Part shown: one piece after another, positions 1 through 29,111 of the stretch
Position numbering within the stretch: position 1 is the stretch's first letter
Layout: each line of letters starts with the position of its first letter
Source: Patellaria atrata CBS 101060
Taxonomy: Eukaryota
Reading direction: 5' to 3'
Length of the DNA: 35,194 nucleotides
Assembly: GCA_010093705.1 (NCBI GenBank)
Contig: MU006119.1
Span: 135,002-170,195, forward strand
Program-made: the position numbers and the translations under genes
The notes under the pieces: model-generated
What the model was told of the DNA's origin: nothing
The model's input: the letters and a program-made list of their open reading frames with translations, nothing else
Database searches by the model: none

Positions 1-3000
1 TAAAAGATAATTAAACTAAAATTTAATAAAATAGAACTATTATATATAAATACTTAATTTATAATATTATTATTTCTTAACTTAATCTTTATACTTAATA
101 GTTAATAATAAAGATAGTTAAAATATAATTATTATAATTATATTATATTATTATACTAGATTAAATTTTTCTTTAATAATCTTTAAAAAGATAATATAAT
201 ATTTTAATTAAAGTATAATATTAGTTTAATTAATAAATAATTATAAAATTAATTAGAAATTTATAAATAATTAAGCTTTATTAATAATAAAATATTTAAT
301 ATTTAAAAATATTAATATTAATAATAACGATAATTTAGTATTTAAAAGAAATTAAAATTAATAAATATAAATTATTTAAAAAAGTAAATATTATAGTAAA
401 TTAAATAAAATAATTAAATCTTTAATAATTTTAATAAAGTAAATAAATAATAAATTAACTATAAATTTAAAAGTAAAAAGTAATATTAAATTAAAAGAAA
501 AAATATATTAATATAAATTAATATTAAAAGTAATTAATTAATAAATTATTAATAATATTTTAGAAATAAATTTATAAAATTTATTAAAAAAAATTTCTAA
601 AATAATAAAAAAAGAAAAATCTCTTAAATATATTATTATTATAAATAATTGAAATAATAATATAATTAATAAAATAAAAGAATAAATAGTTAAAAGTTTA
701 AATTAATTTATAATAAAATATTTTTATATAAAAGTAAAATTTATAATTTAAAAAATATAATTTAAAAAAATAGTAAATTTTATTAATAAAATAATATTTA
801 ATTTATAATTAAAGCTATAAATATATTAAATAAATAAAAAAGCTATAAAATATTTTTAAAATAAAATTAATATTTTAAAAAGATAAATTAAATAATTTAA
901 ATTAAATTAAAAAAGTATTTAATTTAATAATAAATTTAATAATAAAGAATTATTAATATTATATAATTATAATAATTAAGTTAAAATAATTAATTTAACT
1001 AAAAGATTTAAAAGTAAAGATAATAATAAAATAAAGAAATTTCTTAATTTATTAAAATTAATTAATAATAAGAAATTAATTTATAAAAAATAAAAAGTAA
1101 AATAAATAATAAACTTTATATTAATAATAATTAATTTTAAAATAAAAAAGTAAAAACTATTTATATTAAAATATAAATTAATAATAAAATAATTAAATAT
1201 ATATATATTTTTTTTAAAATTAAAAAAGAATAATATAATTTTAATAAAATTAATAAAATTTTTAAACTAAATTTATAAAAATTTAAATAAATAATTAAAA
1301 GTTAAAAATAAATTAAAAAAGTTAAAATAAAATTATTTAATAGATTTTCTAAAATTTTAATTTATATTTATTTAGTTAATTAATAAAGTTAAATTATTAT
1401 ATAATTAATAGAAAAAGAGACTTTATAATAAATTTTATAATAATTTAAGATTAATAATAATAAAAACTATAAATAATAATAAAATTAGCTTTTAAAAGTA
1501 TTATAATAAAGTTATAATATAAATATAAAAGTTAAAAAGATTAAATAAAACTAATAAAATTTATAAAAAAAATTAAAAATATAATAAATTAATTAAAATA
1601 ACTTTTATTTTAATAATAATAAAAAAATTTTATATTAATTAAAAAGTAAAGAAACTATTTTATCTATAATATTATAAATAATAAAGTAAATTATAATTAT
1701 TTAAAAATTTATAGATAATTATTTTAATTATAATAAAATTAGATATAAAGTATTAAAATACTAGAAATTAAAGAAAATAATTAAAGTAAAGTTAATTTAA
1801 AAAGATAAATATTAAAGTTTAAAGTTTAATTTAAAGTTAAATTTAAAAAATAAGAAACTTTAAATAAAAACTTTATATTAAAATTAATAATAGAAATATT
1901 AATAATATTAATTAATAATTTAATATTAAAAAAGCTATTTATAATATTATATTAAATTTTAAAGAATAAAATTATAATATAACTTAAAACTTTAATTAAT
2001 ATTAAAGTTTAAAAGTATATTTTATTAAATAAAAGATAATTATTTACTCTAAAATAATATCTTAAAATCGAAATTAGAAAAATAGATTAAAAAATTAAAA
2101 TTAATATCTTTAATAATTTAAAGATAATATTAATTAATTAAATATTTAAGATAAACTTTATAATTAAAGAATAAAAATAGTTAATATTAATTATAATAAT
2201 AAATATAAATTATAATAATATATTTATAAATAAAAAGTAATTTTTTAAAACTAATAATTTATTTAATTATAAATATTATTAAATTATTTAGTTAAAATAA
2301 ACTATTATAATTAAAAACTAATAATAAAATATTATAATTTTAAAGAATAAGCTATAAATTTAAATAAATTTATAATATTAATTTAATATAAAATAATAAA
2401 ATAAAATTATTAATAAATAAAAATATAATTAATAAAAAATATTAATTAATTAAAGAAAAAAATTATAATTATTTTAATAAAAATAATTAAGTTTATAAAC
2501 TAAAAATATTAACTTTAATCTTTAAAAGATAAAATTAAAACTATTAAATTTAATAAAAAGAGAAATATTAAAACTCTTTAAAAAATTAAAATTAAAATTA
2601 AATAAATAGATTAATATTATTAGAATTTATATAAATATTTACTTAATTAATAGAGAAAATTATCTAAAAAATATAAAATATAAAGATATTATTATAAATA
2701 TTATAAGTTTATATAAAATTAACTTTTTAATATAAAATTAACTTTTAAAAGATAAAAATCTTTTAAATAAAAATAAAAATATTTATAAAATAATAACTTA
2801 TAAAAAATTATTTAAAAAATATTATTATTTAATTTATATATTCTCGAAATTTATATTTAATAAGTTACTATTATTTAAAAAAGATATAGATTATAATATA
2901 ATATTAAATTAAAATAATAATTTTATTATTAACTTTTTATATAATATATTTATCGAATATTTATAGCTAATAAAGAATTATTTAAAGAAATATTTTTAAA

Positions 3001-3247
3001 AGAGATTTATTATTTCGAATAAAATATTATATATATTTTTAGTATTATTTATTAAAAAGTTAAAAGGAGATTAAAGATTTTATATTAATTATAAAAAACT
3101 AAATAATATTATTAAAAAGAATAAATATCTATTATTTTTAATTAAAGAAATATTAATATATTTTCGATAAATAAAGATATTTATAAAATTTAATATAAAA
3201 TAAATATTCTATTAAATTTAAATAAAAAAGTTAATTAAAAATCTTAT

Positions 3248-3445
3248 TATAACGGTGTAGCGGTTATAGAGAATCGAATTAGATTATAACTAGTATAACT
3301 TAACTATAATATAAAGAGATTAAGTTAAGGAAAGAAGAAATTATAATTATATAATCTATTAATATTAAGTATATAATAGTAGAATCTCGGCGCGACTACT
3401 ACTAATAAGGGAAAATAGGAAATAATAATCTATAATATTATTATA
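3248..3445. mobile_element. 198-bp solo LTR of an unrelated LTR-retrotransposon family inserted in the RT of E
   Basis: Ends are tataacgg...ttattata, i.e. RIP-mutated TGTAACGG...CCGTTACA inverted termini. TSD CTTAT at 3243-3247 and 3446-3450. It keeps more G/C (cggtgtagcgg, ctcggcgcgac) than its flanks. Confidence 0.85.
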
Positions 3446-3655
3446 CTTATTATCTTTTAAATAAAATATAAATTATTTAAATATAAAATATTATCTTTTA
3501 AATTATATAATAGTTTAATCTTATTTTAATAATTTATTAATAAGATATTTTTTTAATATTTTAATAATTTTTATATAATATATATTAATAATATATTAAT
3601 TTACTTTAAATATTTATTAAAATATTAAATCTATATCACGAAAATACTAAAAATA

Positions 3656-4283
3656 TATTATAATAAAAGTTTATATTTATTAAAATAAAATTAGATAAAT
3701 TTAAAAATATATTTAACTTTTTATTTAATATAGTTAACTATAAAGATAAATTTAATAAAATAATAAAATATATATAATAAAGATATTTTAAGTTAATAAT
3801 ATAATTTATTAACTTTTTAATTTTAGATAACACTTATAATAAGATAAGATATATTATATAAAAATAATATAATAAATAAAGTTAAATTTAAAACTATAAT
3901 ATTTAACTTTATAAATAAGATTAATAGTAAAAATAATTATAAAGAATTTAAATATATAAAAAAAAGATTATTTTTAAATATTTTTATTTTTTATAATTAA
4001 TTTAATTATTTATATTTTAATTATTTTAATTATTTAATTATTTAATTATTTCTTTTATAATTAAAATATTTATATATTTAAATATTTAAACTATATAATA
4101 TTTTTTAATTATTTTAATTATTTAGTTATTTAATTATTTTTTTTATAATTAAAATATTTATATATTTAAATATTTAAATTATATAATTTATTATTATTTA
4201 TTTTATTTATAATTCTTTTAAATAGTTTTCCTTTTTTCCTTTTATTTATTATTTATATATTTCTATAACTTATAACTATAATA
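3656..4283 (-). mobile_element. 628-bp solo LTR of the A/B/C Gypsy family inserted in the RT of E
   Basis: Colinear with LTRs 4952-5534 and 10919-11528 over the first ~350 bp and last ~100 bp. TSD aaata (3651-3655) / aagta (4284-4288) differs only by a G>A change. Confidence 0.9.
4015..4186. repeat. Two-copy ~88-bp tandem repeat in the U3 region of the solo LTR
   Basis: ttttataattaaaatatttatatatttaaatatttaaa occurs at 4053 and 4141 (period 88). Confidence 0.8.
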
Positions 4284-4918
4284 AAGTATTAATTAAGGCT
4301 AATTTATAAATTAATATTAAAAAAAATAAATTCTATATAATAAAGATAAAATTTTTTAACTTAATTATTAATATTAATAGAATAATAATAAATTTAAAAA
4401 AGATTAAAATAATTTAAAATTAGAAATTACTAATAAATATAAAAAGAATCTTATTATTTAATAAATTTTATAACTTTTATTAAAAGTTTCTAAAGAAATT
4501 TAGATAAATTATATAACTATTAATAATATAAATATAAAAAGAGGTTTAGAAATTATTTAAATAAAAAGAAAAAAAAATATTTAAGAAAATAAAAAAGTTA
4601 ATTCTATTAAATTAAATATTAATATATTATAACTTTTTATTTAAGATAAAAATTAAGTTTAATTATAATAATTAAATTATTATAATAATTATATTATAAT
4701 TTTATAAATATATTTAAAAGTTAATTATCTTCTAGACTAAAATATTATTAGAAATAAAATTAAAATATAAAATCTATAATAAGAAAATATTAATTATAAT
4801 AAAAGTATTAATTAAATAGAGAAATATATTAATAAAATTATAGTAAATTCCCTTTACTATAATTATTAATTATAAAATATTAAAATATTTTACTATAAAA
4901 TAATTATTTAATACTAAA

Positions 4919-4951
4919 TATTATATTTAATTAAGTATTTAATTAAATATA
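4919..4951 (+). repeat. Copia D 5' LTR, first 33 bp
   Basis: tattatatttaattaagtatttaattaaatata matches 34691-34723. Confidence 0.8.
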
Positions 4952-5534
4952 TATTATAATAAAAGTCTATATTTATTAAAATAGAATTAAATAAATTTAA
5001 AAATATATTTAACTTCTTATTTAATATAGTTAATTATAAAGATAAGTTTAATAAAGTAATAAAATATATATAATAAAAATATTTTAAGTTAATAATATAA
5101 CTTACTAACTTTTTAACTTTAAATAATACTTATAATAAGATAAAATATATTATATAAAAATAATATAATAAATTAAATTAAATTTAAAACTATAATATTT
5201 AAATTTATAAATAAAATTAATAGTAAAAATAATTATAAAAAATTTAAATATATAAAGAAAAAATTATTTTTAAATATTTTTATTCTTTATAATTAATTTA
5301 ATATATTTATATTTTAGTTATTCTAATTATTAATTATTTATAACGATTAATATAATTAGTAATTATTATCTAATTATTTTAATTATTAATTATTTCTAAT
5401 AATTAACGCGATTAATAATTATTATTTAATTATATAATTCTTTATTATTTATTTTATCTATAATTTTTTTAAATAATATTTCTTTCTTCCTCTTATTTAT
5501 TATTTATATATTTTTATAATTTATAGTTATAATA
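4952..5534 (-). repeat. 3' LTR of element B (583 bp)
   Basis: Termini tattataat...gttataata (RIP form of TGTTAC...GTAACA), followed by the complement of the polypurine tract (ttattctcttttttcttaact). Confidence 0.9.
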
Positions 5535-5650
5535 TTATTCTCTTTTTTCTTAACTTTTATCTTAAAAGTTTATTTTTTTTACTTAAGTATAAAATAAATA
5601 TATTATTTATTTATTAAATTATATATATCTTTTTTTTCTTTTTTTTTAAG

Positions 5651-6198
5651 ATATTAAAAACTAAATCTTATTTAATCTATTATTAATATTATATTATTTA
5701 TATTACTTTATATAATTATCTTATATTAACTTTTTATTTTATTTATTATTATTCTTTTTATTTTTATATTATTAATATTCTCTTTAATTTTTATTTTAAA
5801 TATTTTATTTATAATATAAAATATAATCTTATAATATTATAAAAAAATTAAGATAAACTTAATATTTTAAGAGTTAAACTTTATTATTAACTTATTTAAA
5901 CTTACTCTATTAATAATAAGGCGTTTATTTAAAAGAAATAATTAATATAATAACTTTATTTTTTTAATTAAAAAGAGATTAAAATATTTTATTATAAATT
6001 AAATTTTATTAAAAAGTTAAAAACTTTAAAATAAATAATTAAAGAATAATAAACTTTCTTAATTATTTCTTTTTTTTTATTATTATATCTTCTTCTAGTT
6101 AATTTAGTTTAAATTTCTTTATTTTTAAAAGTTTAAAATTTTCTAATTTTAATAATAAAACTATTTAAATTTTTAATTATAATTTATTAAATATTTAA
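5651..6198 (+). pseudogene. Antisense ORF relic of element B: Zn2Cys6-like cluster plus coiled coil (divergent variant)
   Basis: Aligns codon by codon with 11644-12213. Six Cys-compatible tat codons keep the x2/x6/x8/x2/x6 spacing. There is an in-frame 7-codon indel in the coiled coil and a 1-nt loss in a T-run near 6070-6078. Confidence 0.7.
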
Positions 6199-6440
6199 AT
6201 AATTTCTATATATTATTTATATATTTATAGTCTTTTTATTTTATTAAATACTTATATTAATTATTTATTTATTATAGATTTAAAATTTATTTTATTTTAT
6301 AAATATCTTCTTTTTTAAATTTTATAGATTATATTTAAAGTTTAATATTAGTATATACTAATTCTAGAAATAATATATAAAAAACTAAATATATCTTTAT
6401 TTTTTATAATAATTTTAATTTATAATTAACTTTTTCTTTA

Positions 6441-6491
6441 ATATAATCTATAAGCGAGTAGTATATATAAATAAATAATATATTTTTCCAT
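6441..6491. repeat. Left TIR of element F
   Basis: Reverse complement of 8252-8302 apart from transition differences. Confidence 0.85.
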
Positions 6492-6538
6492 TTTATTATA
6501 ATCTTTAAACTTAATTATATAGTTATAACTCGAGAAAA

Positions 6539-8203
6539 TTAATTATATTTAATTAAACTTTCTTCTTTAAATATTTCTTTATTCTTTTAATAAGTTTATA
6601 TATTATATTTAATCTTTCTATATCTTCTATAATATTATAAATATAATAATTCTTTCTTTACTAAATCTCTTTTCTTTAACTTTTTACTCGATTATCGCCT
6701 AATAATCTTTTTCTAAATAATTAATTCTTATATATCTTATATATTAAATACTTCTTCTATTTATATATATATTTTTTTAGCTTATCGTCGCTTTATAAGT
6801 ATCTTATTAGCCTTTCGAAGCGTTTAGACCTTATTATATATAAATATTATTTTATAAGTAATAAACTTTATACTCTTTATTAATTATTTAATAGTTAAGA
6901 AAATAGTATTTAAAGAACTTCCTTAATATTAAATTATCTAATTCTTAATATATTTAGACTACGAAATAGCTTTTTTAAAGTTATTTAATATCTAAAAAAC
7001 TTATAAATCGGTAGCGGGAAGAAAAAATCTAGTTAATATTAATATTTATAACTTTATATTAAGCTTTAAAATAATAGCTTAAAGATTATAAAGAACTAGG
7101 CTAATATTAAAGAAACTCGCTTAAATATTTTTAATCGTTATAATATTAATATAGATATTTTTAAATATAATAAAGAATTTAATTTTAGTGATATAGTTAA
7201 TATAAACTTTAATAAAGACTTTAAGTTCCCGGCTATATATTCGTTTTAATACGCTAAAATATCTAATATTTAAAGATTAGATAAGATGCGAAAAATATAT
7301 AAATAAATAAATAGTAATAATATTCTTTTCTTTATAGAATTCCTTAAACTAAACTAATAAATAACTTATATAATTATTAAGAATAATTATCTAATAAATA
7401 TTTTTTTATTAGATATTTATATATTAATGGAAATACTAAATTTAGTCTATAGCTATCTTTTTATCTATTTAGCCGTTTAGCGAGATCTTAATAACTTAAG
7501 AAAGCGGGAGACTATATTTAATATATTAAAATATAAGATAATTAACGCCTTATATAATTAAGAAAAAAGATAGTATAAAACTATTATTACTTATATACTC
7601 GATTATTATAGCTTATTCGCGATTATTAGGCTAAAGTTATTTATCTTTATTACGTCTATTAATACACGTAATAACTATATCGTTATAAATAATATCTATT
7701 ATAAAGTCTATTTTATCGAAGTTATAAAGATTAATATCTTAAATTATATATTTCGCGTATATATTAGTTATTAAATAGAATTATATATTTATCGTATTTA
7801 AATTTTTATAAAGAGCTCTTTAGAAATCGTAAATATAAGAAAAATATATTTTTAGTTTTAATTATTATTTAATAAAGTTCTCTATTTAATACTTTTTTAT
7901 ATATCCTATAACGCGTTTCACGAGAAGTAGATTAGCTATCTCTTCTATATTAACTAGCTAAGATAGAAACCCTCATGTATTTAAGTCTAAAATATATTAG
8001 ACGATTATCTCTTCTTTAGTTTCTATTAACTTTTAAGAATTAGGGCGATAGTCGCGTTTAAAAGTTTAGCCGTTTATTCTCGTATAAAAGATAGTTTTAG
8101 AGATATTATAGATTATTATAACTTTCTAATAGCTAAGTTTTTTATTACGTTAAAAAGTTTAGATAATAAGGATAATTTAATTTTTATTTAATTATATAGA
8201 TAT
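6539..8203 (-). pseudogene. pogo/Fot1 DDE transposase relic (~554 codons)
   Basis: De-RIP reading gives MSIQSNENQIILAIQ... at the start and ILDGH.SHLSAQFEEFCKEKNIITICLPAHSSHLTQPLDVGCFSVLKRMYSRELE (~7385-7220). The C-terminus ...ARTCQKDEEMSEEES is in the same frame as the start. Confidence 0.88.
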
Positions 8204-8251
8204 TATTAGTTATAGAGAAATATATTATTATAGAAGAAAAAGTTATAATAT

Positions 8252-8302
8252 ATAAAAAAGTATATTATTTATTTATATATATTACTCGTTTATAGATTAT
8301 AT
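8252..8302. repeat. Right TIR of element F
   Basis: ...tattatttatttatatatattactcgtttatagattatat, an inverted copy of 6441-6491. Confidence 0.85.
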
Positions 8303-10918
8303 TAATTTATTTAATTTTAAAAGAGTTAATTTTTTTATAATTTAATTTTTTATTAAATCGTTTTATTTTAAAATTTTTCTATAATAAATAAACTTTATTC
8401 TTTTTTTTAAAGATTAATTTTAATAATTTATATTAATTATTATATTTTATAGTTTTTATTATTTAAAAAGCTATATTTTATAATAATTATATATATAATT
8501 CTTTAATTTATTTAACTTTTAATATTACTTCTTATAAAATATTTTAAATTATTCTCGATTTATAATATACTTTTAATTTAAAATTATAGTTTATATAAAA
8601 GAGTAAAATCTTTATAATATTAAATTTTATATTATTATATATAAATTATACTATTAATAGTAACTTTATTTAATTATTTTATTAATAATTTATATAATTA
8701 TATAAATATTATTTTAAAGATTAATTTATTCTTTTAATTTAATTATTTATTTATAAATAAAAGTTTATTAATAATTTATAATTTATCTTTAAACTTTATA
8801 TTAAAATTTATTAAAATATTAATTTAAATAATTTATCTTTATTTAAAATAATCTTTTTTAATATTTAATAATTTATTAATATTATTTTTATTATTAATAT
8901 TCTTATTTATAATATTATTATTATCGTCTTTATTAATATAAAATAAATAAACTTTATTAATTATTTTATAATAATTAATATTATATTATATTCTACTTTT
9001 ATTATTAAATCTTTAAATTTTAATAAATTTATAATAAAGTTTATTATTATTAAGTTTTATACTTATTTTAATAATTTAATATATTATATTTATCTATAAA
9101 ATATATATTTTATACTCTTATTTTATATATAATTATTATATTTTAAGATAATTTATTTTATTATACTTTTTATTTTTAAAAAATAGTAATTTCTTAAAAT
9201 TCTTTTTAAGATTTTATTAATATTTTAATAACTATATATTAATACTTTATAAATCTCTTTAATAAGAATCTTTTATAATATTATTAATATATATATAAAT
9301 TTATTATATAATTATATTTTTTAAAATATTTATATTATTTTAAAATTATTATTTTTTTTAAAACTTCTTTATTATATTATTTTTCTAATAAATATTATAA
9401 ATTTATTATTTTTTTATAAATTCAATTATTAGTATTATAGTTAATCTTAATTAATTATAGATAATCGCGTTATTTTCTTTTTTTAATATTATATTATATA
9501 CTAATTTTATTTTTTTTAAATAATTAAATTTTCTATTTATAATATTATTTAATTTATTTTTAATTTCTAGTTTATAAAAGATTTTAAAATTAAAGAATAT
9601 AAATATTTTTATCTATTTTATTTATCTTTAATTTAATTTCTTTATTATAAAAAAATTTATTAAGTTTTAATAATTTAATTAAACTTTTATAATATATTTA
9701 AATTCTTTAAAATATAACTTTTACTATTTAAATATATTAATAATTATTAATGATTCTTTATTATTTATATTATAATTTAACTTTATAATTATAAACTTTT
9801 ATAAATAAAAAATTATTAAATATAATTATTTTTTCTTATTTAATTAATTTATATATATATTTAATATATAATTAAATATATTAGTTTTTAATATTATTAA
9901 TTTCTTTAAATTAAATATAATTAAAATAAATATTATAATAAACTTTTTCTTAAATTTATTAAATACTTTTTATATTTTTTTTATTTAAATAAAGATATTT
10001 TCCTTCTTTATTAATTTTAATAATAGTATTATTACTTTTAAATACTTTTAAATAAATTTTCTATAATAGTTTATAAAATTTAAAAATAATTATATATTCT
10101 TTATATTCTTTAATATTAGTTAATTTTTAATTATAATTATCTTTTTTAAATTTATTTATATTTTTTTAATAATAATAATAAAGTTTAGAAATTTCGTTTT
10201 TTTAATATAAAATTTATATTTATTTAAATATATTAAAAGTCTCTTTTCTTATAATTTTATTAATATTTTCTTTATATATTTTCTATATTTTTTAAACGTT
10301 TTATTTATATATATTAGTATATTATCTAAATAAATAATTATAAATATATTTAAATATTCTTTTAATATATAATTAATTATTACTTAAAATATTATTATAA
10401 TATTAATTAAATTAAATAATATTATTATATATTTATATAATCTAAATTTTATTCTTATAATTATTTTCTATTTTTTATCTTCTTTTATTCTAATTTAATA
10501 TTAATTATTTTAAATATTAAATTTTATAAATTATTTTACTTTTTATAATTTATCTTAAATTTTTAAGATTAAAGATAATAAATATTTATTTTTAATTATA
10601 ATATTATTTAACTATTTATAATTAATATATAATTTTAACTTATTATTTTTCTTTAATATAAATAAAATTAATAAAATTATTAAATTTTTATTAAATTATA
10701 TATATCTTTTTTTTAAATTAATATAAATATATTCTTTAAATATTTTATATTATTTTTTTATTAATAAATAAATTAAATTAAATTATAATTTTATATTTTT
10801 TTTTAATATTATTTTATAATTTTATATTTAATAATTTAGAAATATAATTATTATATCTTTTTTAAATAAATCTTTAAACTTATTATATTCTTTAAATATA
10901 TTAGATTTTTTAAAAATC

Positions 10919-11528
10919 TATTATAACGGGAGTCTATACTTATTAAGACGGAACTAGATAAATCTAGAAACACGTCTAGCTTCTCACTTAACGTGGTTAA
11001 CTATAAAGATAGGTTTAGTAAAGTGATAGGATATATATAATAAAGGCATTTTAAGTTATCGATATAACTTACTAACTCCTTAACTTTCGGTAATACTTAT
11101 AATAAGATAAGACGTACTATATAGAAATAATATAATAAGTGAAGTTAAGTTTAAAACTATAATATCTAAATTTATAGATAAGATTAATAATAAGAATAAC
11201 TATAAAAAATCTAAATATATAAGAGAAAGACCGTTCTTAAATATTCCTATCCTCTATAGTTAATTTAGTATACCTATACCTTTTTAGATATAGTGGCCGT
11301 TTTAAATATAGATCTCCTTCTACGTCCTTTACGTCTATTACGTCTATAACCTAGACGTCCTAAATATAATGGACGTGGATCCCCTCTTACGTTCTTTATA
11401 TCTATTACGTCTATAGTTTCTAATCACGTGACCCCTTATTACTAGTTTTATCCGTAGTTCTCCCGAGTGGTGTTCCTACTTTCCCCTTACTTATTATCTA
11501 TATATTTCTATAACTTATAGTCGTAATA
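10919..11528 (-). repeat. 3' LTR of element A (610 bp)
   Basis: Direct repeat of 17741-18350, with termini tattataacggg...gtcgtaata. Confidence 0.95.
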
Positions 11529-11545
11529 CTATCCTCCTTTTTCTT
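11529..11545 (-). other. Polypurine tract of element A
   Basis: ctatcctcctttttctt = aagaaaaaggaggatag on the minus strand, abutting the 3' LTR. Confidence 0.8.
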
Positions 11546-11643
11546 AACTCTTATTTTAAGAGTTTATTCCTTTTACTTAAGTATAAAGTAGCCGTATTAC
11601 CTATCTATTAAGTCGTACGCACCTCTTTTTCCTTTCTTCTAAG

Positions 11644-12213
11644 ATACCTTAAACTAAATCTCGCGTAGTTTATCGTCGGTGTCTTATAGCCTAAATTATA
11701 TCCTCCGGTCGACTAATACTTACTCCCTATTTAATCTATCGCCGTTAATCTTATATTTACCGTCTCGATCTCTCTTCCGGCTTCTATTCTAAGTGTATAG
11801 CTCGTGGTTTAAAATGCGACCTTATAGTGATATAAAAGGATTAAGATAAGTTAAACGCTTCGCGATCTAAGCTTCGTCGTAAACTCGCTAAGGCGCGAGT
11901 TTCCCGTGATAACGTACACGCCCGGATATTAGAGGCTTTTACTCGTGAGGAGCGATTAATATAGTAACTCTAACTTCTCGATTAGAAGAAGGGCGAAATA
12001 ATTCATCGTAAGCTTAATTCTATTAAGAAACTTAAGGCTTTAAAGCGAGTAGCTAAAGGGTAGCGAGCTTCCTCGATCGCTCCTTCTTCCTCCATTATCG
12101 TGTCTTTCTCTAGTTAGTCTAGTTTAGATTTCCCTACCCTTAAGGGTCTAGAATTCCCTAGTTTTAACGATAAAACTATTTAAGTTTCTAATCGTAGTTC
12201 GTTAAGTGTTTAA
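11644..12213 (+). pseudogene. Antisense ORF relic of element A: predicted Zn(II)2Cys6-like cluster (11728-11817), coiled coil and Ser/acidic tail, ~190 codons
   Basis: De-RIP using A and C: MPRTKSR..HRRRLVAQIMSSGRP..TPCS.CRRQS..CRLDLSSGFCSECIARGLKCDL..TQKDWDKLDASRSKLRRELAEAR.SRDN.HARMLEAFAREERLMQQLQLLDQKEGEMIRRELSSIEELEALER. All stops are TAA/TAG explicable as RIP of CAA/CAG/TGG/CGA. The true stop position is uncertain. Confidence 0.75.
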
Positions 12214-15200
12214 GTGGTTTCTATATATTATCTATATATTTATAGTCTTTTCATTTTACTAAATACTTATACTAATTATTTATTTATTATAGGTCTAAGA
12301 TTTATTCTATCTCGTAGATATCTTCTTCCTCGAGTTCTATAGATCGTGTTTAAAGTTTAGTATTAGTAGATACTAGTTCTAGGAGTAATATATAGAAAAT
12401 TAAGTATATCTTTATTTCTTATAGTAATTCTAACTTATAATTAACTTTTCCTTTAACCTATTTAATTCTAAAAAGGCCGATTTTCTTATAGTCTAGTTTC
12501 TTATTAGGTCGTTTTATTTTAAGGTTTTTCTATAATAAGTAAACTTTATCCCTTCTTTTAAAGGTCGGTTTTAGCGACCTATACTAGTTACTATACTTCG
12601 TAGCTCTTATTATCTAGAAAGCTATATCTCGTGATAGCTATATATATAATTCCTTAATTTACTCGACTTTTAATATTACTTCTTATAAAATACTTTAAAC
12701 CGTTCTCGGCTCTCGATATACTTCTAGTTTAAAACTATAGTTTATATAGAAGGGTAAAACCTTTATAGTATCGAATTTCGCGCTATTATATACGAATTAC
12801 GTTATTAGTAGTAGCTCTACCTAGTTATTCTACTAGTAATTTATATAGTTACGTAAGTATTACTTTAGAGATTAATTTATTCTCTTAGTCTAGCTATCCA
12901 TTTATAGATAAAAGCTCGTTAATAGCTTATAGTTTACCCTTAGACTCTATACTAGAGTCTACTAAAACGTTAATTTAAATAGTTTATCTCTATCTAAGAT
13001 AATCTCTCTCGATATTTAGTGATTTACTAGCATTATTTTTATCACTAATACTACTACTTATAGTGCTATTATCGTTATCTTTACTAGTATAAAGTAGGTG
13101 AACTTTATTAGTCGCTCCACGATAACTAATATCGCGTTATACTTTACTTCTATCGCTAGATCTTTAGATCCTAGTAGATCTATAATAAAGTCTATCGTTA
13201 TTAAGTCCTATACTCGCTTTAGTGGCTTAATATATTATATCTATCTATAAGATACGTATTTAGTACTCTTATTTCGTATATAGTCGTTATACTCTAAAAT
13301 AACTTACTTTACTATATCTCTTACCCCTAGGAAATAGTAATTCCTTAAAATCCTTTTTAAGGTTTTATTAATACCTTAGTGATCGTGTGCTAGTGCTTTA
13401 TAGATCTCTTTAGTAAGGGTCTTTCGTAGTGTCGTTAGTATATATATAAGCTTATTATATAGCTATATTCCTTAAGCTATTTATATTACCCTAAAGTCGT
13501 TACCCTTTCGGAACTCCTCTATTATACTATCCTTCTAATAAGTATCACGAATTTATTATTCTCTTATAGATTCGATTATTAGTATTATAGCTAATCTTAG
13601 CTAGTTATAGATGATTACGTCGTTTTCTTTCTTTAGTACTATATCGTATACCGGTTTTATTCCTTCTAGATAGTCGGATCTTCTATTTATAGTATCGGCT
13701 AGTCTATTTTCGACTTTTAGTCTATAGAATATCTTAAAGTTAAAAGATACGAGTGTTTCTATCTATCTTACTTATCTTCAATTTAACTTCTTTATTATAA
13801 GGAAGTTTATTAGGTTTTAATAGTCTAATTAAACTTTTATAATAAACTTAGGTTCTTTAAAGTATAACCTCTATTATTTAAATATATCGACGATTACTAA
13901 TAACTCTTTATTATATACGTTATAATTTAGCTCTACGGCCGTGAATTTCCGTAAATAAAAGGCTATTAAATATAGTCGTCCTTTCTTATCTAGCTAACTT
14001 ATATATACACCTAGTATATAATTAGATACGTTAGTCTCTAGCACTATTAGTTTCTCTAGGTTAAATATAACTAAGATAGGTATTATAGTGAACTTCTTCT
14101 TAAATTCGTTGAATACTTTCTAGACCTTCTCTATCTAAATAAAGGTATTTTCCTTCTTTATTAATTCTAATAGTGATATTATTACCTTTAAGTACCCCTA
14201 AATAAACTTTCTATAATAGTTCGCGAAATCTAGGAATAATTATATATTCTTTATATTCTTCGGCGTTGGTTAATCTTAGATTATAGCTATCTTTTTTAGG
14301 TCTACTTATATACCTTTAGTGGTAACGATAAAGTCTAGGAATTTCGTTTCTTTAGTATAGAATTCACACTTATCTAGGTGTACTAGGAGTCTCTTTTCTT
14401 ATAGTTTCGTTAATACTTTCTTTATATACTTTCTATACTCTTCGAGTATTCCGTTTATATATACTAGTATATTATCTAAGTAAGTAATTATAAATACGTC
14501 TAAATACTTTTTTAATATATAATTAATCACTACTTAGAACGTTACTAGGGCGTTAGTTAAGCTAAATAGTATTACTATATATTTATATAGTCTAAACCTC
14601 GTTCTTATAACTATCTTCTATTCTTCGCCTTCTTTTATTCTAATTCGATAGTAACCGTCTCGGATATCGAATTTCGTAAACCATTTTACTCCTTATAACC
14701 TATCTTAGATTTCTAAGATTAAGGGTAATAGGTATCTATTCTTAACCGTAGTATCGTTTAACTATTTATAGTCGATATATAATCTTAGCTTACTATTCTT
14801 CTTTAGTATAAATAGAATCGGTAAAGCTATTAGGCTTTCGCTAGGTCGTATATATCCCTTTTCTAAGTTAGTGCGGATATATTCCTCGAGTGCTTTATAT
14901 TATTCTCTTATTAACGGGTAAATCGGACCGGGTCGTAGTTTCGTACCCTCTTTTAGCACTATCTTATAATCCCACGTTTAGTGATCTAGAAGTATAGTCG
15001 CTATATCTTCCTTAAATAAATCTTTAAACTCGCTATACTTTTTAAGTATCTTAGGTTCTTTAGAAACCTTCTTAGCGTCTATTTTCCTAAGTTATACTAC
15101 TTCTACGCTCTTAGATTTATTTCTATAGATCTTTATTATCTTATAATATAAAATACATCCTACGGATATATTAACGTCCGTCTACTTAGTACGTCTCGTT

Positions 15201-15661
15201 CACTTAACTTTATCCTTTTATAAGGTGTCTCGGTTAATCTAAATACTTCTCGTCTTTTAATTAATATTTAGGTTTATTATTTATAACTAGTTTATCCCTA
15301 GAATTATATTTATATCTTCTAAATTAGTTATAAGGATATATTAAGTAGTTACCTTTCCTTATATATTAACTTTTACCGATATAGTCTTAAAGTTAATTAG
15401 ACCTCGTCTATATCCTATTTCTTCGCCATTTCCTAGTCGTAACGGGACTAGATTTTCAAGTTTCGTGTAAGGTATACTCTTCTTTTCTACCTATTAGGGT
15501 GAGATAAACGAATCGGTGGCGCCGCTATTAACTAGCGCTATCGTTCTTTTACCGTGTATAGTAATATTTATCTAAAGCGTCCTATCGTTACTTCGTAGGG
15601 TTTTAAGGAACTTAGGAGCTATATTTCTCGATTATTCCTATCTCGAGTGGCTTAGTAGTTT
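12136..15661 (-). pseudogene. pol: pol relic of element A (PR-RT-RH-IN-chromodomain)
   Basis: Mirror of the C pol at 22975-26500. The 3' end is approximate. Confidence 0.9.
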
Positions 15662-17709
15662 TTTACGTAGCTATATACTAAGTAACTAGACTTTACGTAC
15701 ACGGTCTAGTGTAGTTTATCGTGTCGATTATAATATAGATCTTTACGATATTCCTTATATTCTAATTCTTAATATTCTCGTTTAATAACTACGTTATAAC
15801 TTAAGTTACTTTTAATTCCTACTCTCTATCTTTACGCGGTATAGTAATCGTATTATATTCCTCTAATAGCGTATTACCTAAAGTCTATCGCGTTATATTT
15901 AATAACTTATTTAATAGTTTCTCTTTTATCTCTAAACGTTTCTATTTTCTATAGGAACACTTTTTCTTTATAGAACTCTTCTTTTAATCCTTTATAGTAC
16001 TAGTAATTTATACTATATTCATAATCTACCTATATTACTACTATATATTCTACGTGGATTAGCGCCCCGTAATATTGTCTATATTTTAGTTTATCCGTGT
16101 AACTAAAACTATTATACTTTCTATAGTCGCCTATTAGTGGTTCGAGTCCTCGGTTCTTTTTAAGTGTTTTCGTTTCGTCTTCGTGGGTTTTACACCCTCT
16201 TACCTAGCACTCGTTTTTAGATAAATGTACGTGTATAGGGTCTCGGTCCTTAAACTTTACTATAACCTTCTATTATTTATAGTATAAGTAGCTATCCTCT
16301 TTATACTATATTTATTAAAAGGCTAGGTAGTCTTTTACTCTTAATATAAGATTTAATTATTATTCTTTAATAGTTATATCGGTATCGGATTCGGGTTTAA
16401 TCGGTTCCTAATTTCGGAACTCTTATTTAAGCTAACGTTATTATTCTATAATCCGGTATATAAGACTTAGTCCGTTAAATATTTATACTCTAATCCTTTA
16501 ACCCTAATTCTATACTAAGTATTCTAATACTATATATACGTGTATATTTCCGTATATCTAATATTATTAGTAGTTTAAATATTATCGGAGTATCTCCTCT
16601 TCTAGCTAGTTTCCTTTTATTAGGAATAACGTTAATAGCCTACTCACTCCTATTTAGTAAGGTAGCGGCGTTTCTTCGGTCTCTTCTTCTTCTAGCGATA
16701 AGACTAGTGACGGTAGTGTTAGATATATAACTCTAAATTATATACGTCGGTTATATCGCGATAATAGTTATATCTTTTATAGATAGTCTCTCTTAAAATA
16801 TCCCACTTCTCTATATTATAGATATACTTTATTCGTAAAGCGTTCTTTCTCTTTCTAGATAAATTATTGTTATTTCTTTAACTTTTTCTATTTTATCTAT
16901 TATAGTCGGTCGAGGTCTATCGAGTCCCTTTAATTTTATCTATTCGTGGCCCTCGTTACCTTCTTTCTATATCTAACTATAATATTCTTCTATCCTCTCT
17001 TTTTCTATCTACGCTCGTATAATTTATTATCTATTTTAACTACTAAAGTCACTATATTCTATATAGTTATTAGTCTCTTATAATAAATCTATTCGTCCTT
17101 TACTTCTTCCTTTAAACCTTAGTAGAAGGCGATTATTAGTGATTTATTAGGCTAACCTAATATTAATACTACTTATTAAAATATAGTTATATATTTTAAA
17201 GTTAATTCCTTCTATCTAAGTCCTTAAAGCTTTCTTTTAGTTATCTATTATTTATCGACTTCTCTAAAGACGTTCTTAAGCGTTTCTTTAAACTTTAAAA
17301 ATAACGTGAAGATCTTACTCGTTTTATCTTCTTAATTTTCCTTATTATTCTTAAAATAGTCTCGTATAATAGGTTTAAATCATTCTAAAGTGTCTTCTTT
17401 AAGGTATGTTAATATATTAAGTATACGTTCACTATTATCTATTAGCCCTATTCTTTTATAATAGATTCTTATCTAGGTTAAGAATCCTCTTAGCTCATCT
17501 CGTTTATTATCGTATAACGCGGGTTCTTTAACTTTTATGGTTCGCTTCTATAGTAAGAGTAACTATACGGTAAGTTATTCGAGCTAGTCCCTAAGTTCTT
17601 AGACTATTCCTTTATTTTTAAGTTCGTTAATATATTTATATAACACTTAAATATATTTTTTATCCGTTTTTATATTAGCTATAGCTAATAATATCGTGTT
17701 TAAGTCTAT
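15652..17709 (-). pseudogene. gag: gag relic of element A
   Basis: Mirror of the C gag at 20927-22984. Confidence 0.85.
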
Positions 17710-17740
17710 TATACGCCTTCCTACTACGTGGTAGTTATAA

Positions 17741-18350
17741 TATTATAACGGGAGTCTATACTTATTAAGACGGAACTAGATAAGTCTAGAAACGCGCCTA
17801 GTTTCTCACTTAACGTGGTTAACTATAAAGGTAGGTTTAGTAAAGTGATAGAATACGTATAATAAAGATATTTTAAGTTATCGATATAACTTACTAACTC
17901 CTTAACTTCCGGTAATACTTATAATAAGATAAGATATACTATATAGAAATAGTATAATAAGTGAAGTTAAGTTTAAAACCGTAATATCTAAATCTATAGA
18001 TAAGATTAATAGTAAGAATAACTACGAAGAATCTAAATATATAAAGGAAAGATTATTCTTAAATATTTCTATTCTCTATAATTAATTTAGTATATCTATA
18101 TCTTTTTAGATATAGTGGCCGTTCTAGATATAAATCTCCTTCTATATCCTTTATATCTATTATATCTATAATCTAGATATCTTAGACGTGGTGGACGTAA
18201 ATCCCCTTTTATATCCTTTACGTCTATTACGTCTATAGTTTCTAATCACGTGACCCCTTATTACTAGTTTTATCTATAGTTCTCCCGAGTGGTATTCCTA
18301 CTTTCTCTTCACTCGTTATCTATATATTCTTATAACTTATAGCTATAATA
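17741..18350 (-). repeat. 5' LTR of element A (610 bp)
   Basis: Direct repeat of 10919-11528, adjacent to the PBS region and gag start on the minus strand. Confidence 0.95.
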
Positions 18351-20285
18351 AAATCTTTTTAATATTTACTTTTTTAAATTATATTATTTTTATATTTTTA
18401 AATTTATTTCTATAAATCTTTATTATTTTATAATATAAAATATATCTTATAAATATATTAATATTTATTTATTTAATATATTTTATTTATTTAATTTTAT
18501 TCTTTTATAAAATATTTTAATTAATTTAAATATTTTTTATTTTTTAATTAATATTTAAATTTATTATTTATAATTAATTTATTTTTAAAATTATATTTAT
18601 ATTTTCTAAATTAATTATAAAAATATATTAAATAATTATCTTTTTTTATATATTAACTTTTATTAATATAGTTTTAAAGTTAATTAAATTTTATTTAAAT
18701 TTTATTTCTTTATTATTTTCTAATTATAATAAAATTAAATTCTTAAATTTTATATAAAATATATTCTTTTTTTTTATTTATTAAAGTGAAATAAATAAAT
18801 TAATAATATTATTATTAATTAATATTATTATTTTTTTACTATATATAATAATATTTATTTAAAGTATTTTATTATTATTTTATAAAATTTTAAAAAATTT
18901 AGAAATTATATTTCTTAATTATTTTTATCTTAAATAATTTAGTAATTTTTTATATAATTATATATTAGATAATTAAATTTTATATATATAGTTTAATATA
19001 ATTTATTATATTAATTATAATATAAATCTTTATAATATTTTTTATATTTTAATTCTTAATATTTTTATTTAATAATTATATTATAATTTAAATTACTTTT
19101 AATTTCTACTTTTTATCTTTATATAATATAATAATTATATTATATTTCTTTAATTATATATTATCTAAAGTTTATCGTATTATATTTAATAATATATTTA
19201 AATATTTTCTTATTATTTTAAAATATTTTTATTTTTTATAGAAATATTTTTTTTTATAAAACTTTTCTTTTAAATCTTTATAATATTAATAATTTATATT
19301 ATATTTATAATCTATTTATATTATTATTATATATTCTATATAAATTAATATTTAATAATATTATTTATATTTAAATTTATTTATATAATTAAAACTATTA
19401 TATTTTCTATAATTATTTATTAATAACTTAAATTTTTAATTCTTTTTAAATATTTTTATTTTATTTTTATAAATTTTATATTTTTTTATCTAATATTAAC
19501 TTTTAAATAAATATATATATATAAAATCTTAATTTTTAAACTTTATTATAATTTTCTATTATTTATAATATAAATAATTATTTTTTTTATATTATATTTA
19601 TTAAAAGATTAAATAATCTTTTACTTTTAATATAAAGTTTTATTATTATTTCTTTATAATTATATTAATATTAAATTTAAGTTTAATTAATTTTTAATTT
19701 TAAAATTTTTATTTAAATTAATATTATTATTTTATAATCTAATATATAAAATTTAATTTATTAAATATTTATATTTTAATTCTTTAATTTTAATTTTATA
19801 TTAAATATTTTAATATTATATATATATATATATATTTCTATATATTTAATATTATTAATTATTTAAATATTATTAAAATATTTTTTTCTTTAATTAATTT
19901 TCTATTATTAAAAATAATATTAATAATTTATTTATTTTTATTTAATAAAATAATAATATTTTTTTAATCTTTTTCTCTTTTAATAATAAAATTAATAATA
20001 ATAATATTAAATATATAACTTTAAATTATATATATTAATTATATTATAAAAATAATTATATTTTTTATAAATAATTTTTTTTAAAATATTTTATTTCTTA
20101 TATTATAAATATATTTTATTTATAAAATATTCTTTTTCTTTTTAAATAAATTATTATTATTTCTTTAATTTCTTTTATTTTATTTATTATAATTAATTAA
20201 AATTTATTAAATTTTTTTAATTTTATTTATTTATAACTTTTATTATTTTCTTTTTATATTTAATTATAATATTTTTCTATCTTTT

Positions 20286-20895
20286 TATTACGGCTATAAG
20301 TTATAGGAATATATAGATAACGAGTAAGGGGAAAGTAGGAACACCACTTAAGAGAACCACGGATAAAACTAGTAATAAGGGATCACGTGATTAGAAACTA
20401 TAGATGTAATAGACGTAAAGAATATAAGAGAGGATCCACGTCTATTATATCTAAGACGTCTAGGTTATAGACGTAGTAGATATAAAGAATATAGAAGGAG
20501 ATTTACGTCTAAAATAGTTATTACGTCTAAAAAGATATAGATATATTAAATTAATTATAGAGGATAGGAATATTTAAGGATAATCTTTCCCTTATATATT
20601 TAGATTCTTCGTAGTTATTCTTACTATTAATCTTATCTATAGATTTAAATATTACGGTTTTAAACTTAACTTTACTTATTATATTATTTCTATATAGTAT
20701 ATCTTATCTTATTATAAGTATTACCGGAAGTTAAGAAGTTAGTAAGTTATATCGATAACTTAAAATACCTTTATTATATATATTCTATCACTTTACTAAA
20801 TTTATCTTTATAGTTAACCACGTTAAGTGAGAAGCTAGGCGTGTTTCTAGATTTATCTAGTTCTATCTTAATAAGTATAGACTCCCGTTATAATA
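20286..20895 (+). repeat. 5' LTR of element C (610 bp)
   Basis: tattacggc...cccgttataata (RIP form of TGTTACGGC...GTTGTAACA or similar), a direct repeat of 27108-27717. Confidence 0.95.
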
Positions 20896-20897
20896 TT

Positions 20898-20905
20898 ATA
20901 ACTAC
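20898..20905 (+). promoter_or_regulatory. Candidate self-priming PBS (ataactac), complementary to gtagttat at 20611-20618 within the LTR
   Basis: Lies 2 nt downstream of the 5' LTR. No TGG-starting tRNA-type PBS is visible. The complementary 8-mer sits just downstream of a TATA-like tatatatt (20593-20600). Confidence 0.4.
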
Positions 20906-20926
20906 TATATAGTAGAAAGGCGTATA

Positions 20927-25900: not shown

Positions 25901-26500
25901 GTTTTAAACTAGAAGTATATCGAGAGCCGAGAACGGTTTAAAGTATTTTATAAAAAGTAATATTAAAAGTCGAGCAAATTAAGGAATTATACGTATAGTT
26001 ATTACGAGATATAGCTTTCTAAACGATAAGAGCTACGAAGTATAGTAACTAGTATAGATCGCTAAAACTAATCTTTAAAAGAGGGGATAAAGTTTACTTA
26101 TTATAGAAAAACCTTAAAATAAAACGACCTAATAAGAAACTAGATTATAAGAAAATCGGCCCCTTTAGAATTAAATAGGTTAAAGGAAAAGTTAATTATA
26201 AGTTAGAATTACTATAAGGAATAAAGATATATCTAGTTTTCTATATATTACTCCTAGAACTAGCACCTACTAATATTAAACTCTAAATACGATCTATAGA
26301 ACTTAAGGAAGAAGATATTTACGAGATAGAATAAATCTTAGACCTATAACGAGTAAATAGTTAGTATAAGTATTTAGTAAAATAGAAAGGTTACGAACAC
26401 GTAAATAATATATAGGAACTACTTAAACACTTAACGAACTATAATTAGAAACTTAAATAGTTTTATCGCTAAAACTAGGGAATTCTAGACCCTCGAGGAT
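22975..26500 (+). pseudogene. pol: pol relic of element C (PR-RT-RH-IN-chromodomain); includes the 74-aa ORF-track fragment 24106-24330
   Basis: Protease ALV(D)SGATDSF (~23098-23130). RT WFTKFDIRD.YYRIR and Y-L-(D)-(D) (24154-24165). RNase [26 protein letters not shown] (~24672-24750). Integrase HGHQG, MDFI.GLP and HPQTDGQTERTNQ. Chromodomain YLVKWKGYEHVDNTWEPLKHLTNC (~26370-26442). The 3' end is approximate. Confidence 0.93.
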
Positions 26501-26992
26501 AGAGAAATCTAAACTAGACTAACTAGAGGGAGACACGATAGCGGAGGAAGAAAGAGTGACCGAGAAAGCTCGCTACCCTTCGACTACTCGCTCTAAAGTC
26601 TTAAGTTCCTCGATAGAACTAAGCTTACGACGAATTATTTCGCTCTCCTTCTAATCGAGAAGTTAGAGCTACTATATTAATCGCTCCTCACGAGCGAAAG
26701 CCTCTAATATCCGGGCGTGTACGTTATTACGGGAAACTCGCGCCTTAGCGAGCTTACGATAAAGCTTAGATCGCGAAGCGTTTAGCTTATCCTAATCCTT
26801 TTATATCATTATAAGGTCGTATTTTAAACCACGAGCTATACACTTAGAATAGAAGCCGGAAGAGAGATCGAGATAGTAAATATAAGACTAACGGCGATAG
26901 ATTAAATAGGGAGTAAGTATTAGTCGACCGGAGGATATAATTTAGGCTATAAGACGCCGACGATAAACTACGCGAGATTTAGTTCGAGGTAT
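26423..26992 (-). pseudogene. Antisense ORF relic of element C: Zn(II)2Cys6-like cluster (26819-26908) plus coiled coil
   Basis: Second copy of 11644-12213. It keeps cga (R) where A has taa, and has tac where A keeps tgc (C), showing that the stops and Tyr codons are RIP products. Confidence 0.75.
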
Positions 26993-27090
26993 CTTAGAAG
27001 AAAGGAAAAGGAGATATATATAACTTAATAGATAGGTAATACGTCTACTTTATACCTAAGTAAAAGGAATAAACTCTTAGGATAAGAGTT

Positions 27091-27107
27091 AAGAAGAGGG
27101 AGGATAA
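27091..27107 (+). other. Polypurine tract of element C
   Basis: aagaagagggaggataa immediately 5' of the 3' LTR. Confidence 0.8.
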
Positions 27108-29021: not shown

Positions 29022-29026
29022 ATATA

Positions 29027-29111
29027 TATATTATTTTTCTTTAATTTTCTTTAAATTAAATATTTTAATTTATATTTTTTTCTTTATTTTATATATTATT
29101 ATTATTTTATA
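29027..29111 (+). repeat. Copia D 5' LTR, remaining 85 bp
   Basis: Matches 34724-34808 (tatattatttttctttaattttctttaaattaaatattttaatttatat...). Confidence 0.88.

Follow-up and report, generated by a model that had tools for sequence, protein, structure and literature searches.

Antisense Remnants of a Gene for a Zn2Cys6-like Protein in a Chromodomain Ty3/Gypsy Retrotransposon of Patellaria atrata

LTR retrotransposons are usually taken to rely on the transcription factors of their hosts. At the 3' end of one such element of Patellaria atrata CBS 101060, on the strand opposite gag-pol, there is a frame of some 190 codons that is riddled with stops and in which an earlier note, written from the letters of the DNA alone, had recognized the traces of a zinc cluster followed by a coiled coil. 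The question that this locus raises is whether a gene once stood there, what kind of protein it specified and what such a protein might do for a mobile element. We have taken it up both in the window, by which we mean the whole stretch of 35,194 nt that was analysed, and in homologues of the frame found elsewhere.

The carrier element and its antisense frame

GC content is only 3-12% across much of the window and 26-34% in two blocks, and these blocks are inverted copies of a single 7.4-kb element. Copy A occupies positions 10914-18353 with gag-pol on the minus strand, copy C lies on the plus strand at 20283-27722, inverted with respect to A, and the two are 90% identical over 7440 nt. Target-site duplications of sequence AAATC are read from the flanks of copy A at 10914-10918 and 18353-18357, and its LTRs, both on the minus strand, extend over 10919-11528 (610 nt) and 17741-18352; they were recognized as a repeat in which 10919-11528 matches 17741-18350 with an identity of 88.5% over 610 nt, with 70 mismatches and no gaps. 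Because gag-pol of copy A is on the minus strand, the left LTR is the 3' LTR (the right one being the 5' LTR) and the polypurine tract (PPT) is located at 11529-11545, also on the minus strand, where the plus strand reads CTATCCTCCTTTTTCTT. The inner (U3) end of the 3' LTR is ...GTAATA at 11528, with ...GTAACA in un-RIPed relatives, and in relatives the same C(C/T)ATCCCCC.. block adjoins the LTR just as the PPT does in copy A. Two sequencing runs, both probably of DNA, gave genomic contigs only over 10500-18800; one such contig, which connects 10916 directly to 18362 and omits 7445 nt, looks like the empty site of copy A.

The RIP-degraded gag-pol of copy A extends over 12095-17740 on the minus strand, where Pfam matches in one frame correspond to an aspartyl protease, RVT_1 (E 6.8e-18), two RNase H models, Integrase_H2C2 and SH3_Tf2-1. 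In terms of domains the copy contains PR, RT, RNase H, integrase, SH3 and a chromodomain, the chromodomain or chromodomain-like end of pol lying at about 12161-12319 (minus strand) and the original pol stop somewhere within 12095-12166. Chromo (PF00385) and Retrotrans_gag are included among the Pfam domains of relatives. The features by which a Ty3/Gypsy chromovirus is recognized, LTRs, a 5-bp target duplication, a PPT and the domain order gag, PR, RT, RNase H, IN and chromodomain, are all found in the window, and the carrier is a chromodomain Ty3/Gypsy element of 7.4 kb.

The antisense frame of copy A runs on the plus strand from 11644 to 12213, exactly as the earlier note had it, and consists of 190 codons including the terminal stop (189 codons and a stop, as delimited by alignment to homologues). 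Its first position lies 115 nt inside the end of the 3' LTR at 11528, in keeping with the ~115 bp that had been estimated, and a leader on the plus strand (11546-11643) separates the PPT from the start codon; gene and pol are thus arranged tail-to-tail. The description of the frame as sitting between pol and the PPT is correct as to its position 3' of pol and inexact at one end, in that the frame, which closes with a stop at 12211-12213, shares its final 48-119 nt with the 3' terminal part of pol on the opposite strand. A second version, 92% identical to the first, occupies 26423-26992 of the minus strand in copy C, and a third, older and far more degraded version belongs to copy B at 5651-6198 on the plus strand, where the match to A (61% identity) covers 5658-6198. 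These are the three locations that had been given. No further occurrence of the frame region beyond A, B and C was found in the window, and all three window copies of the region carry the gene.

Position 11644 of copy A begins an ATA where a start ATG is expected. The terminal codon included, there are 13 stops in the frame of copy A and 12 in that of copy C, 12 and 11 of them internal, and all are TAA or TAG with no TGA. The six codons that had been singled out as a former zinc cluster are all present, TAT at 11728, TAT at 11737, TAC at 11758, TAT at 11785, TGT at 11794 and TGC at 11815, with the spacing x2, x6, x8, x2, x6 that had been claimed, and the last of them is indeed TAC in copy C where A has TGC. 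Tyr now stands in place of Cys at four of the six positions in copy A, at five of six in copy C and, in a by-eye reading against A, at all six in copy B. Over the 570 nt of the frame copies A and C are distinguished by 44 transitions and no transversions, which is the pattern left by RIP.

Whether the four Tyr codons were once Cys, and whether the stops were produced by RIP, as the earlier note had supposed, can be judged from a less-mutated homologue. Two translations from the window (P0001 and P0002), with stops read as X, were used as queries and four proteins were found, all of them from P. atrata CBS 101060. The best match, P0003 (165 aa, E 2.3e-68), is named Zn(2)-C6 fungal-type domain-containing protein in UniRef and aligns codon for codon to window positions 11716-12210, over 165 codons and without a gap. 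Identity extends to 107 of the 165 codons, a further 55 are explained by C>T or G>A in the window, three show the reverse change (a mutation in the copy that encodes P0003 itself) and there are none of any other type. The Cys residues at positions 5, 8, 15, 24, 27 and 34 of P0003 coincide with the six cluster codons of the window, each either TGY or its RIP product TAY, and of the 10 internal window stops that fall within the alignment eight are opposite Gln and two opposite Trp, so that every aligned internal stop is of the kind that RIP produces. When the frame was slid by one codon as a control, 11 codons were the same, 23 were explainable and 131 were unexplainable (n = 165). That all differences from P0003 are of the C>T/G>A type, and that the shifted control fails, makes the fit more than a matter of chance. 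On the strength of this codon comparison we regard it as confirmed that the window frame derives from a gene killed by RIP, the four Tyr codons of its cluster having been Cys, as they are, rather than Tyr or His, in less-mutated homologues. Reasoning about RIP codon by codon in this way retrieves genes that are missed by ORF finders. In the window itself the gene is a RIP-mutated pseudogene in all three copies and does nothing there.

Gene models for the Patellaria proteins begin at an internal Met, and most relatives start about 25-30 residues earlier. The stretch 11644-11727 (plus strand) matches the basic N-terminal arm of those relatives, of the type MPK..RR.RL..I..SG..MPTPC, so that the 190-codon frame represents the whole gene; the start at 11644 fits as well, ATA deriving from ATG. 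Beyond the arm, all on the plus strand, come the six-Cys cluster CX2CX6CX8CX2CX6C at 11728-11817, placed by the P0003 alignment, a long-helix (coiled-coil) segment predicted at 11818-12060 from an AlphaFold model of the relative P0043, with a right limit estimated by eye, and a Ser-rich acidic tail with aromatic residues at 12061-12210, the last part of which overlaps the 3' end of pol on the opposite strand.

A protein family with a fixed place in its elements

A search with P0003 returned 401 clusters (50% identity) at E<=1e-3, 86 of them at E<=1e-10. Among the 150 relatives listed of the 401 clusters nearly all lengths lie between 79 and 290 aa, the longest protein having 388 aa, and 147 are shorter than 250 aa. 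The full six-Cys pattern is present in 132 of 154 family proteins and several of the others have Tyr at a Cys site. For an alignment of 84 members we chose proteins that have the Cys pattern, and the invariance of Cys in that alignment is therefore partly a result of the choice; a basic N-terminal arm of at least 20 aa, of the type given above, is found in 70 of the 84. Most members of the family are unnamed metagenome proteins. By our assignment of classes, the named members are spread over Dothideomycetes (Patellaria, Cercospora, Elsinoe, Hortaea and Macrophomina), Leotiomycetes (Pseudogymnoascus and Acephala), Lecanoromycetes (Lasallia), Eurotiomycetes (Penicillium) and Sordariomycetes (Cytospora, Cryphonectria, Cordyceps, Hirsutella, Rostrohypoxylon and Monosporascus); one further member is from a Watsoniomyces MAG. 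A gene family of about 190-aa proteins is thus shown to span classes of Pezizomycotina. Clusters closest to it in the ESM Atlas are annotated as ascomycete 'hypothetical proteins', share no Pfam family and give no hint as to function. The family explains hundreds of small orphans, called 'hypothetical' or misnamed, among the proteins predicted from fungal genomes and from metagenomes, and annotators are warned that such small proteins are transposon genes. Some members carry wrong automatic names (galactokinase, AcrA, EnvC).

In order to see where the gene resides in other elements we have scanned metagenome sequence with a profile made from a 9-member subfamily alignment, which yielded 25 loci that sample this one subfamily only. 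An intact ORF of 173-207 aa is present at 19 of the 25. At 18 the gene stands beside pol on the opposite strand, as it does in the window, 16 of these having been recognized with Pfam and two more (L010 and L014) with tblastn. The 16 Pfam-positive loci have pol-type domains directly downstream of the ORF on the opposite strand, in tail-to-tail arrangement and mostly with the chromodomain included; what is matched is either SH3_Tf2-1 with Chromo or an entire pol from protease to chromodomain, often with gag beyond, and at seven of the 16 the pol frame is uninterrupted over 1159-1258 aa. The remaining loci comprise two with gag and no pol adjoining the ORF (L020, L021), one without a pol match at which the ORF match is at the end of a contig (L025) and four that are short or fell outside the pol test (L009, L011, L013, L024). 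The 3' ends of gene and pol range from 9 nt apart to an overlap of 113 nt (-9 to +113). Position within the element is thereby shown to be fixed.

The pol C-termini of the carrier elements are 36-85% identical to one another, and at 13 loci their distances correlate with those of the zinc proteins, with a Mantel r of 0.44 that was reached by 8 of 5000 permutations. The gene is thus a long-standing resident of the element and has diverged along with pol.

Selection on the gene has been quantified with Nei-Gojobori estimates over 14 lineages, that is 91 pairs. For the 42 pairs with finite dS the median dN/dS is 0.23 (range 0.056-0.46), and in the remaining 49 synonymous sites are saturated; the closest pair, L002/L007, has dN 0.045 and dS 0.462. 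When all six frames are compared, the lowest pN/pS belongs to the plus frame in nine of nine pairs and none but this frame stays open in every one of the 14 lineages, which excludes a chance frame, a sense ORF and a function purely at the RNA level. The gene is accordingly shown to be under purifying selection at the level of the protein, and the earlier expectation that the frame would be conserved among homologous elements is borne out both by this comparison and by the 19 intact ORFs.

Two other explanations of the frame had been considered and rejected along the way. A chance frame is ruled out by the ungapped fit to P0003, by the shifted-frame control and by the comparison of frames among lineages. 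A sense-strand ORF downstream of pol fails because each minus frame is stopped in 13 of the 14 lineages and has a higher pN/pS.

Architecture of the predicted protein

An AlphaFold run on the 84-member alignment, with P0043 (197 aa) as its first row, gave a model with a mean pLDDT of 87.4 in which helices are formed by residues 9-23 (the arm), 32-37 and 51-56 (both inside the Cys knot) and 66-147 (one long helix). Foldseek lists 17 PDB matches for the model, 16 of which are Zn2Cys6 structures, with a best E of 0.68 and hence no match at E<=1e-3. With VIA-align the knot superimposes on known zinc clusters at 1.8-2.1 Å over 33-36 residues (Ppr1, 1.8 Å over 36; Gal4, 1.9 Å over 34; Lac9, 2.1 Å over 33), with Z values of only 2.2-2.4 for these three and 2.2-2.8 overall. 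A profile search of the family against PDB sequences gave weak matches to the Zn2Cys6 chains 1cld (E 0.067) and 1ajy (E 0.13), above which coiled-coil proteins were ranked, all of them non-significant.

Membership of Pfam PF00172 (Zn_clus), for which the earlier note had proposed a scan, is borderline. The spacing CX2CX6CX5-12CX2CX6-8C is present in P0003 and in the window codons, and 11 of the 84 relatives match Zn_clus at E<=0.01 with a best E of 1.8e-4. Most family members, on the other hand, score below the Pfam gathering threshold of 21 bits (P0005, the best of the Patellaria models, 20.9, P0003 14.4, P0004 and P0006 11.7 each), and the window translations P0001 and P0002, with stops as X, give no Zn_clus match at E<=10. 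We read the domain as a divergent Zn2Cys6-like one and not as a clean member of PF00172.

The other parts of the proposed layout, a helical segment and a Ser/acidic tail following the cluster, are recovered in the AlphaFold model and in the amino acid composition. The arm carries a median net charge of +4 (70 relatives with an arm of at least 20 aa) and the cluster one of +5. The C-terminal 50 aa, with a median of -6.5, are negative in 83 of the 84 relatives and contain a median of 4 Trp or Phe. As modeled, the protein of about 190 aa would therefore consist of a basic N-terminal helix, a six-Cys knot, a pairing helix of ~80 residues and an acidic tail rich in aromatics.

That the long helix pairs two copies of the protein is supported, short of proof, by a model in which two chains of residues 25-150 were folded together with four zinc ions; computed from a single sequence, it scores 0.52 as compared with 0.00 for the best control. 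In a calibration that was carried out without ligand, 21 of 30 proteins whose solved structures are pairs of one chain attained that mark, and none of 23 solved as single chains did so. At least 67% of contacts agree between runs and the pLDDT of the partner is at least 76. The predicted interface comprises residues 65-128, and contacts such as 100 with 93, 83 with 114 and 96 with 96, with pair sums of about 193-197, describe an antiparallel dimer centered near residue 97. Paired in this way, the two clusters would come to lie far from each other at the two ends of the dimer, in contrast to Gal4, Ppr1 and Put3; Gal4-type factors form a parallel coiled-coil dimer that holds both clusters on one site.

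The protein resembles factors of the Gal4/Ppr1/Put3/Hap1/Pho7 type in its Cys spacing and in the superposition of the knot, and also in having a helical dimerization segment next (here a predicted helix) and an acidic C-terminus. The differences are considerable. With about 190 aa the element protein lacks the middle homology region and is mostly below the Pfam threshold, and its predicted dimer is antiparallel. Gal4 reads CGG through contacts made by basic residues in the stretch between Cys2 and Cys3; in the element protein basic residues do not appear to be conserved there, in that no residue of the stretch reaches 50% in the 84-member consensus, although the cluster as a whole is basic. 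The loop of Zn2Cys6 factors usually contains Pro, and the element protein has SG(R/K)C in place of that loop. Finally, the Gal4-type factors are encoded by host genes and the present protein by a gene carried on a mobile element.

What the antisense gene may do

Antisense ORFs between pol and the 3' LTR (aORF-3R) are a known feature of LTR elements, and the available part of a review names gene23 of maize Grande, rice RIRE2, Silene Retand, Phaseolus PvRetro13 and brtn of Botrytis Boty (Vicient & Casacuberta 2020, PMC7264820). In the portion of that text at hand the function of aORFs is given as not known and no clear similarity to other proteins is described. Antisense extra ORFs in LTR elements are also dealt with in PMC8365987, and Boty is a fungal chromodomain Gypsy element according to PMC4227169, both sources being represented here by excerpts. 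The gene that we describe is likewise antisense, lies between pol and the 3' LTR and recurs in most copies of its family; it differs in its Zn2Cys6-like knot, predicted dimer helix and acidic tail, and in belonging to a family of 401 clusters with measured purifying selection. Boty brtn, reportedly the subject of a paper by Zhao et al. in 2011, may be a member of the family; among the named matches there is no Botrytis or Sclerotinia protein. In the full-text literature, as represented by titles and the beginnings of abstracts and with few subscription journals covered, we have found no description of a zinc-cluster gene in an LTR retrotransposon. The architecture is readable, and this makes the role of retrotransposon antisense accessory genes directly testable.

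Being antisense to the genomic RNA, the ORF is untranslatable from the sense transcript and needs a transcript of its own, made from integrated DNA. Judging from position, this transcript would begin within the 3' LTR of integrated copies, at an antisense promoter such as the earlier note had proposed, or a little to the inside of that LTR: the gene begins 44-117 nt from the inner edge of the LTR in relatives, whose LTRs are about 355-393 nt long, and 115 nt from it in the window. The protein made from it would enter the nucleus, its dimer would bind DNA by way of the zinc clusters, and the bound dimer would regulate transcription from the LTRs of the element itself, in a mode akin to that of the antisense-encoded HTLV-1 HBZ or of a Tat/Tax-type transactivator. 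HBZ of HTLV-1 is a small dimerizing bZIP factor that is encoded antisense next to the 3' LTR and expressed from integrated copies. The likeness, which is one of analogy, consists in the gene for a dimerizing factor (a predicted one in our case) that stands antisense beside the 3' LTR of a retroelement; a bZIP is set against a zinc cluster, host kingdom and element family differ, and there is no homology. An antisense promoter in the 3' LTR of HTLV is mentioned in the available part of PMC7264820.

We incline, with little more than even confidence, to the view that the protein is such a regulator, binding DNA as a dimer at the LTR of its own element and expressed, HBZ-like, from the antisense gene. 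It is favored because a basic cluster, a dimer helix and an acidic aromatic tail make up the layout of a small activator, and an activator appears somewhat more likely than a repressor because of the acidic tail. Confidence is limited by the variable Cys2-Cys3 stretch, the antiparallel pairing and the LTRs, in which paired CGG sites do not occur: a search of the LTRs of relatives for such sites gave no shared motif. The only enriched word that contains CGG, GCGGGG, is found in seven of 11 lineages (7 found, 0.6 expected) and is absent from the window LTR. The low scores against Pfam Zn_clus, the weak matches to PDB sequences and the low structural Z values count against this reading as well.

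The same three points lend some weight to another possibility, doubtful in our estimation, namely that the protein is selected for something other than regulating the LTR of its element. It may work on the chromatin of the host or counter silencing, be it by RIP, quelling or heterochromatin; it may bind RNA; or it may bridge distant nucleic-acid sites as an antiparallel dimer, for example in a pre-integration complex. The evidence for purifying selection applies equally to such roles, clusters held far apart in the predicted dimer would suit them, and the similarity to Pfam Zn_clus is weak. What argues against them is that the arrangement, from the basic cluster through the dimer helix to the acidic and aromatic tail, is classic for a small activator, that the fold matches are solely to DNA-binding Zn2Cys6 domains and that no specific alternative partner is indicated.

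It is very unlikely that the antisense RNA is itself the functional product, serving as a trigger for dsRNA/siRNA or through transcriptional interference in the control of copy number, with the ORF incidental. Sense and antisense transcripts would overlap across the whole ORF and part of pol, and the available part of PMC7264820 deals with antisense RNAs that have regulatory roles in other LTR elements. Against this reading stand a dN/dS far below 1 with synonymous sites near saturation, a plus frame that has the lowest pN/pS in nine of nine pairs and alone is open in 14 of 14 lineages, and the retention of six Cys in 132 of 154 proteins; an RNA role could of course exist beside that of the protein. 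Least probable of all is capture, not long ago, of part of the gene for a Zn2Cys6 factor of the host, carried since as a passenger with no role in the element, for which it can be said that LTR elements are known to capture genes (PMC7264820, available part) and that Zn2Cys6 factors are plentiful in fungi, and against which stand the same place in elements with co-diverging pol C-termini that are 36-85% identical, named members across five classes and lengths (147 of 150 listed relatives below 250 aa, the longest 388) that are not those of host factors; a distant full-length parent in a host may still exist.

Returning to the regulator of the element's own LTR, we would extend it tentatively, as a conjecture less probable than not, to a large clade of ascomycete chromoviruses that encodes a private transcription factor matched in each lineage to the motifs of its own LTRs. 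Were this so, a zinc-cluster protein that varies in its DNA-reading stretch would be paired with the LTR motifs that it recognizes, an antisense gene at the 3' LTR would switch the sense promoter on or off in a fungal counterpart of the Tat/Tax/HBZ circuits, and scattered solo LTRs would place nearby host genes under a factor encoded by a transposon. As for the LTRs of relatives, a conserved TATATAC stands at 171-246 nt from the inner edge in all but one of the 14 loci that have an edge marker. GAGCA-type repeats in the LTRs of relatives are 7-9 fold above expectation, and TCACGTGA is also enriched; the latter occurs in the 3' LTR of the window too, at 11424-11431.

Base composition and insertion site of copy A

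In copy A, a 7.4-kb RIP-mutated chromodomain Ty3/Gypsy element, the accessory ORF (11644-12213, +), an antisense gene for a six-Cys coiled-coil protein lying between pol and the 3' LTR, has a GC content of 38%, as compared with 28% for gag-pol (12214-17740) and 28.5% for the LTR. Either the accessory ORF was originally GC-richer or it contained fewer of the dinucleotides that RIP targets. The GC content of the surroundings of copy A and of the inverted copy C is merely 3-12% across tens of kilobases (1-11000, 18000-20000 and 28000-35194), and repeat matches show that much of this sequence derives from this element family, in copies that are older and have decayed much further, including 18351-19830, which matches 15064-16453, and 8302-10922, which matches copy C. 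These stretches represent the extreme end-state of RIP.

Sequencing contigs from both runs (probably of DNA) connect position 10916 with 18362, with copy A absent and 8 other letters in its place. Because this junction resembles an 'empty' paralogous site, the target of the copy A insertion was probably an older repeat, of which a version lacking copy A is present elsewhere.

LTR motifs shared with metagenome relatives

The LTRs of L001-L023, metagenome loci that contain relatives of the accessory ORF, are otherwise unalignable, with U3 regions that have in common TATATAC, arrays of the words GAGCA/TGCTC, TCACGTGA and GCGGGG. The RIPed LTR of the window retains TCACGTGA (11424-11431), and several TACGTC repeats are also kept there, at ∼11320-11410. 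Immediately downstream of TATATAC the LTRs of L009 and L013 contain a perfect palindrome (at 95-125 and ∼205-235, respectively), the arms of which differ in sequence between the two loci with complementarity preserved (GTGATCTGT..ACAGATCAC in L009 and GTGATCTCT..AGAGATCAC in L013). This palindrome could be an R-region hairpin or the binding site of a dimer.

Unusual structures and misnamed relatives

The contigs of L001, L002, L004, L007 and L022 have 123-174 nt repeated at both ends and a gene order of pol, accessory ORF, single LTR, gag and pol. Such a circularly permuted layout with one LTR is what tandem copies, 1-LTR circles or an assembly-graph cycle would be expected to yield. A second arrangement is found in L020 (5087-6699) and L021 (9989-11601), where the zinc-cluster ORF is followed directly by gag on the opposite strand, without pol, at a locus on a 115-kb contig close to a MIF4G/MA3 gene; it is possibly a non-autonomous, pol-deleted derivative that has retained gag and the accessory gene.

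Six protein relatives of the accessory gene product (P0162, P0163, P0215, P0226, P0135 and P0280) were misnamed by their source pipelines as 'galactokinase', 'multidrug efflux pump subunit AcrA', 'transglutaminase-like cysteine proteinase' or 'septal ring factor EnvC'. These are plainly mis-annotations, in metagenomes, of a fungal transposon gene.
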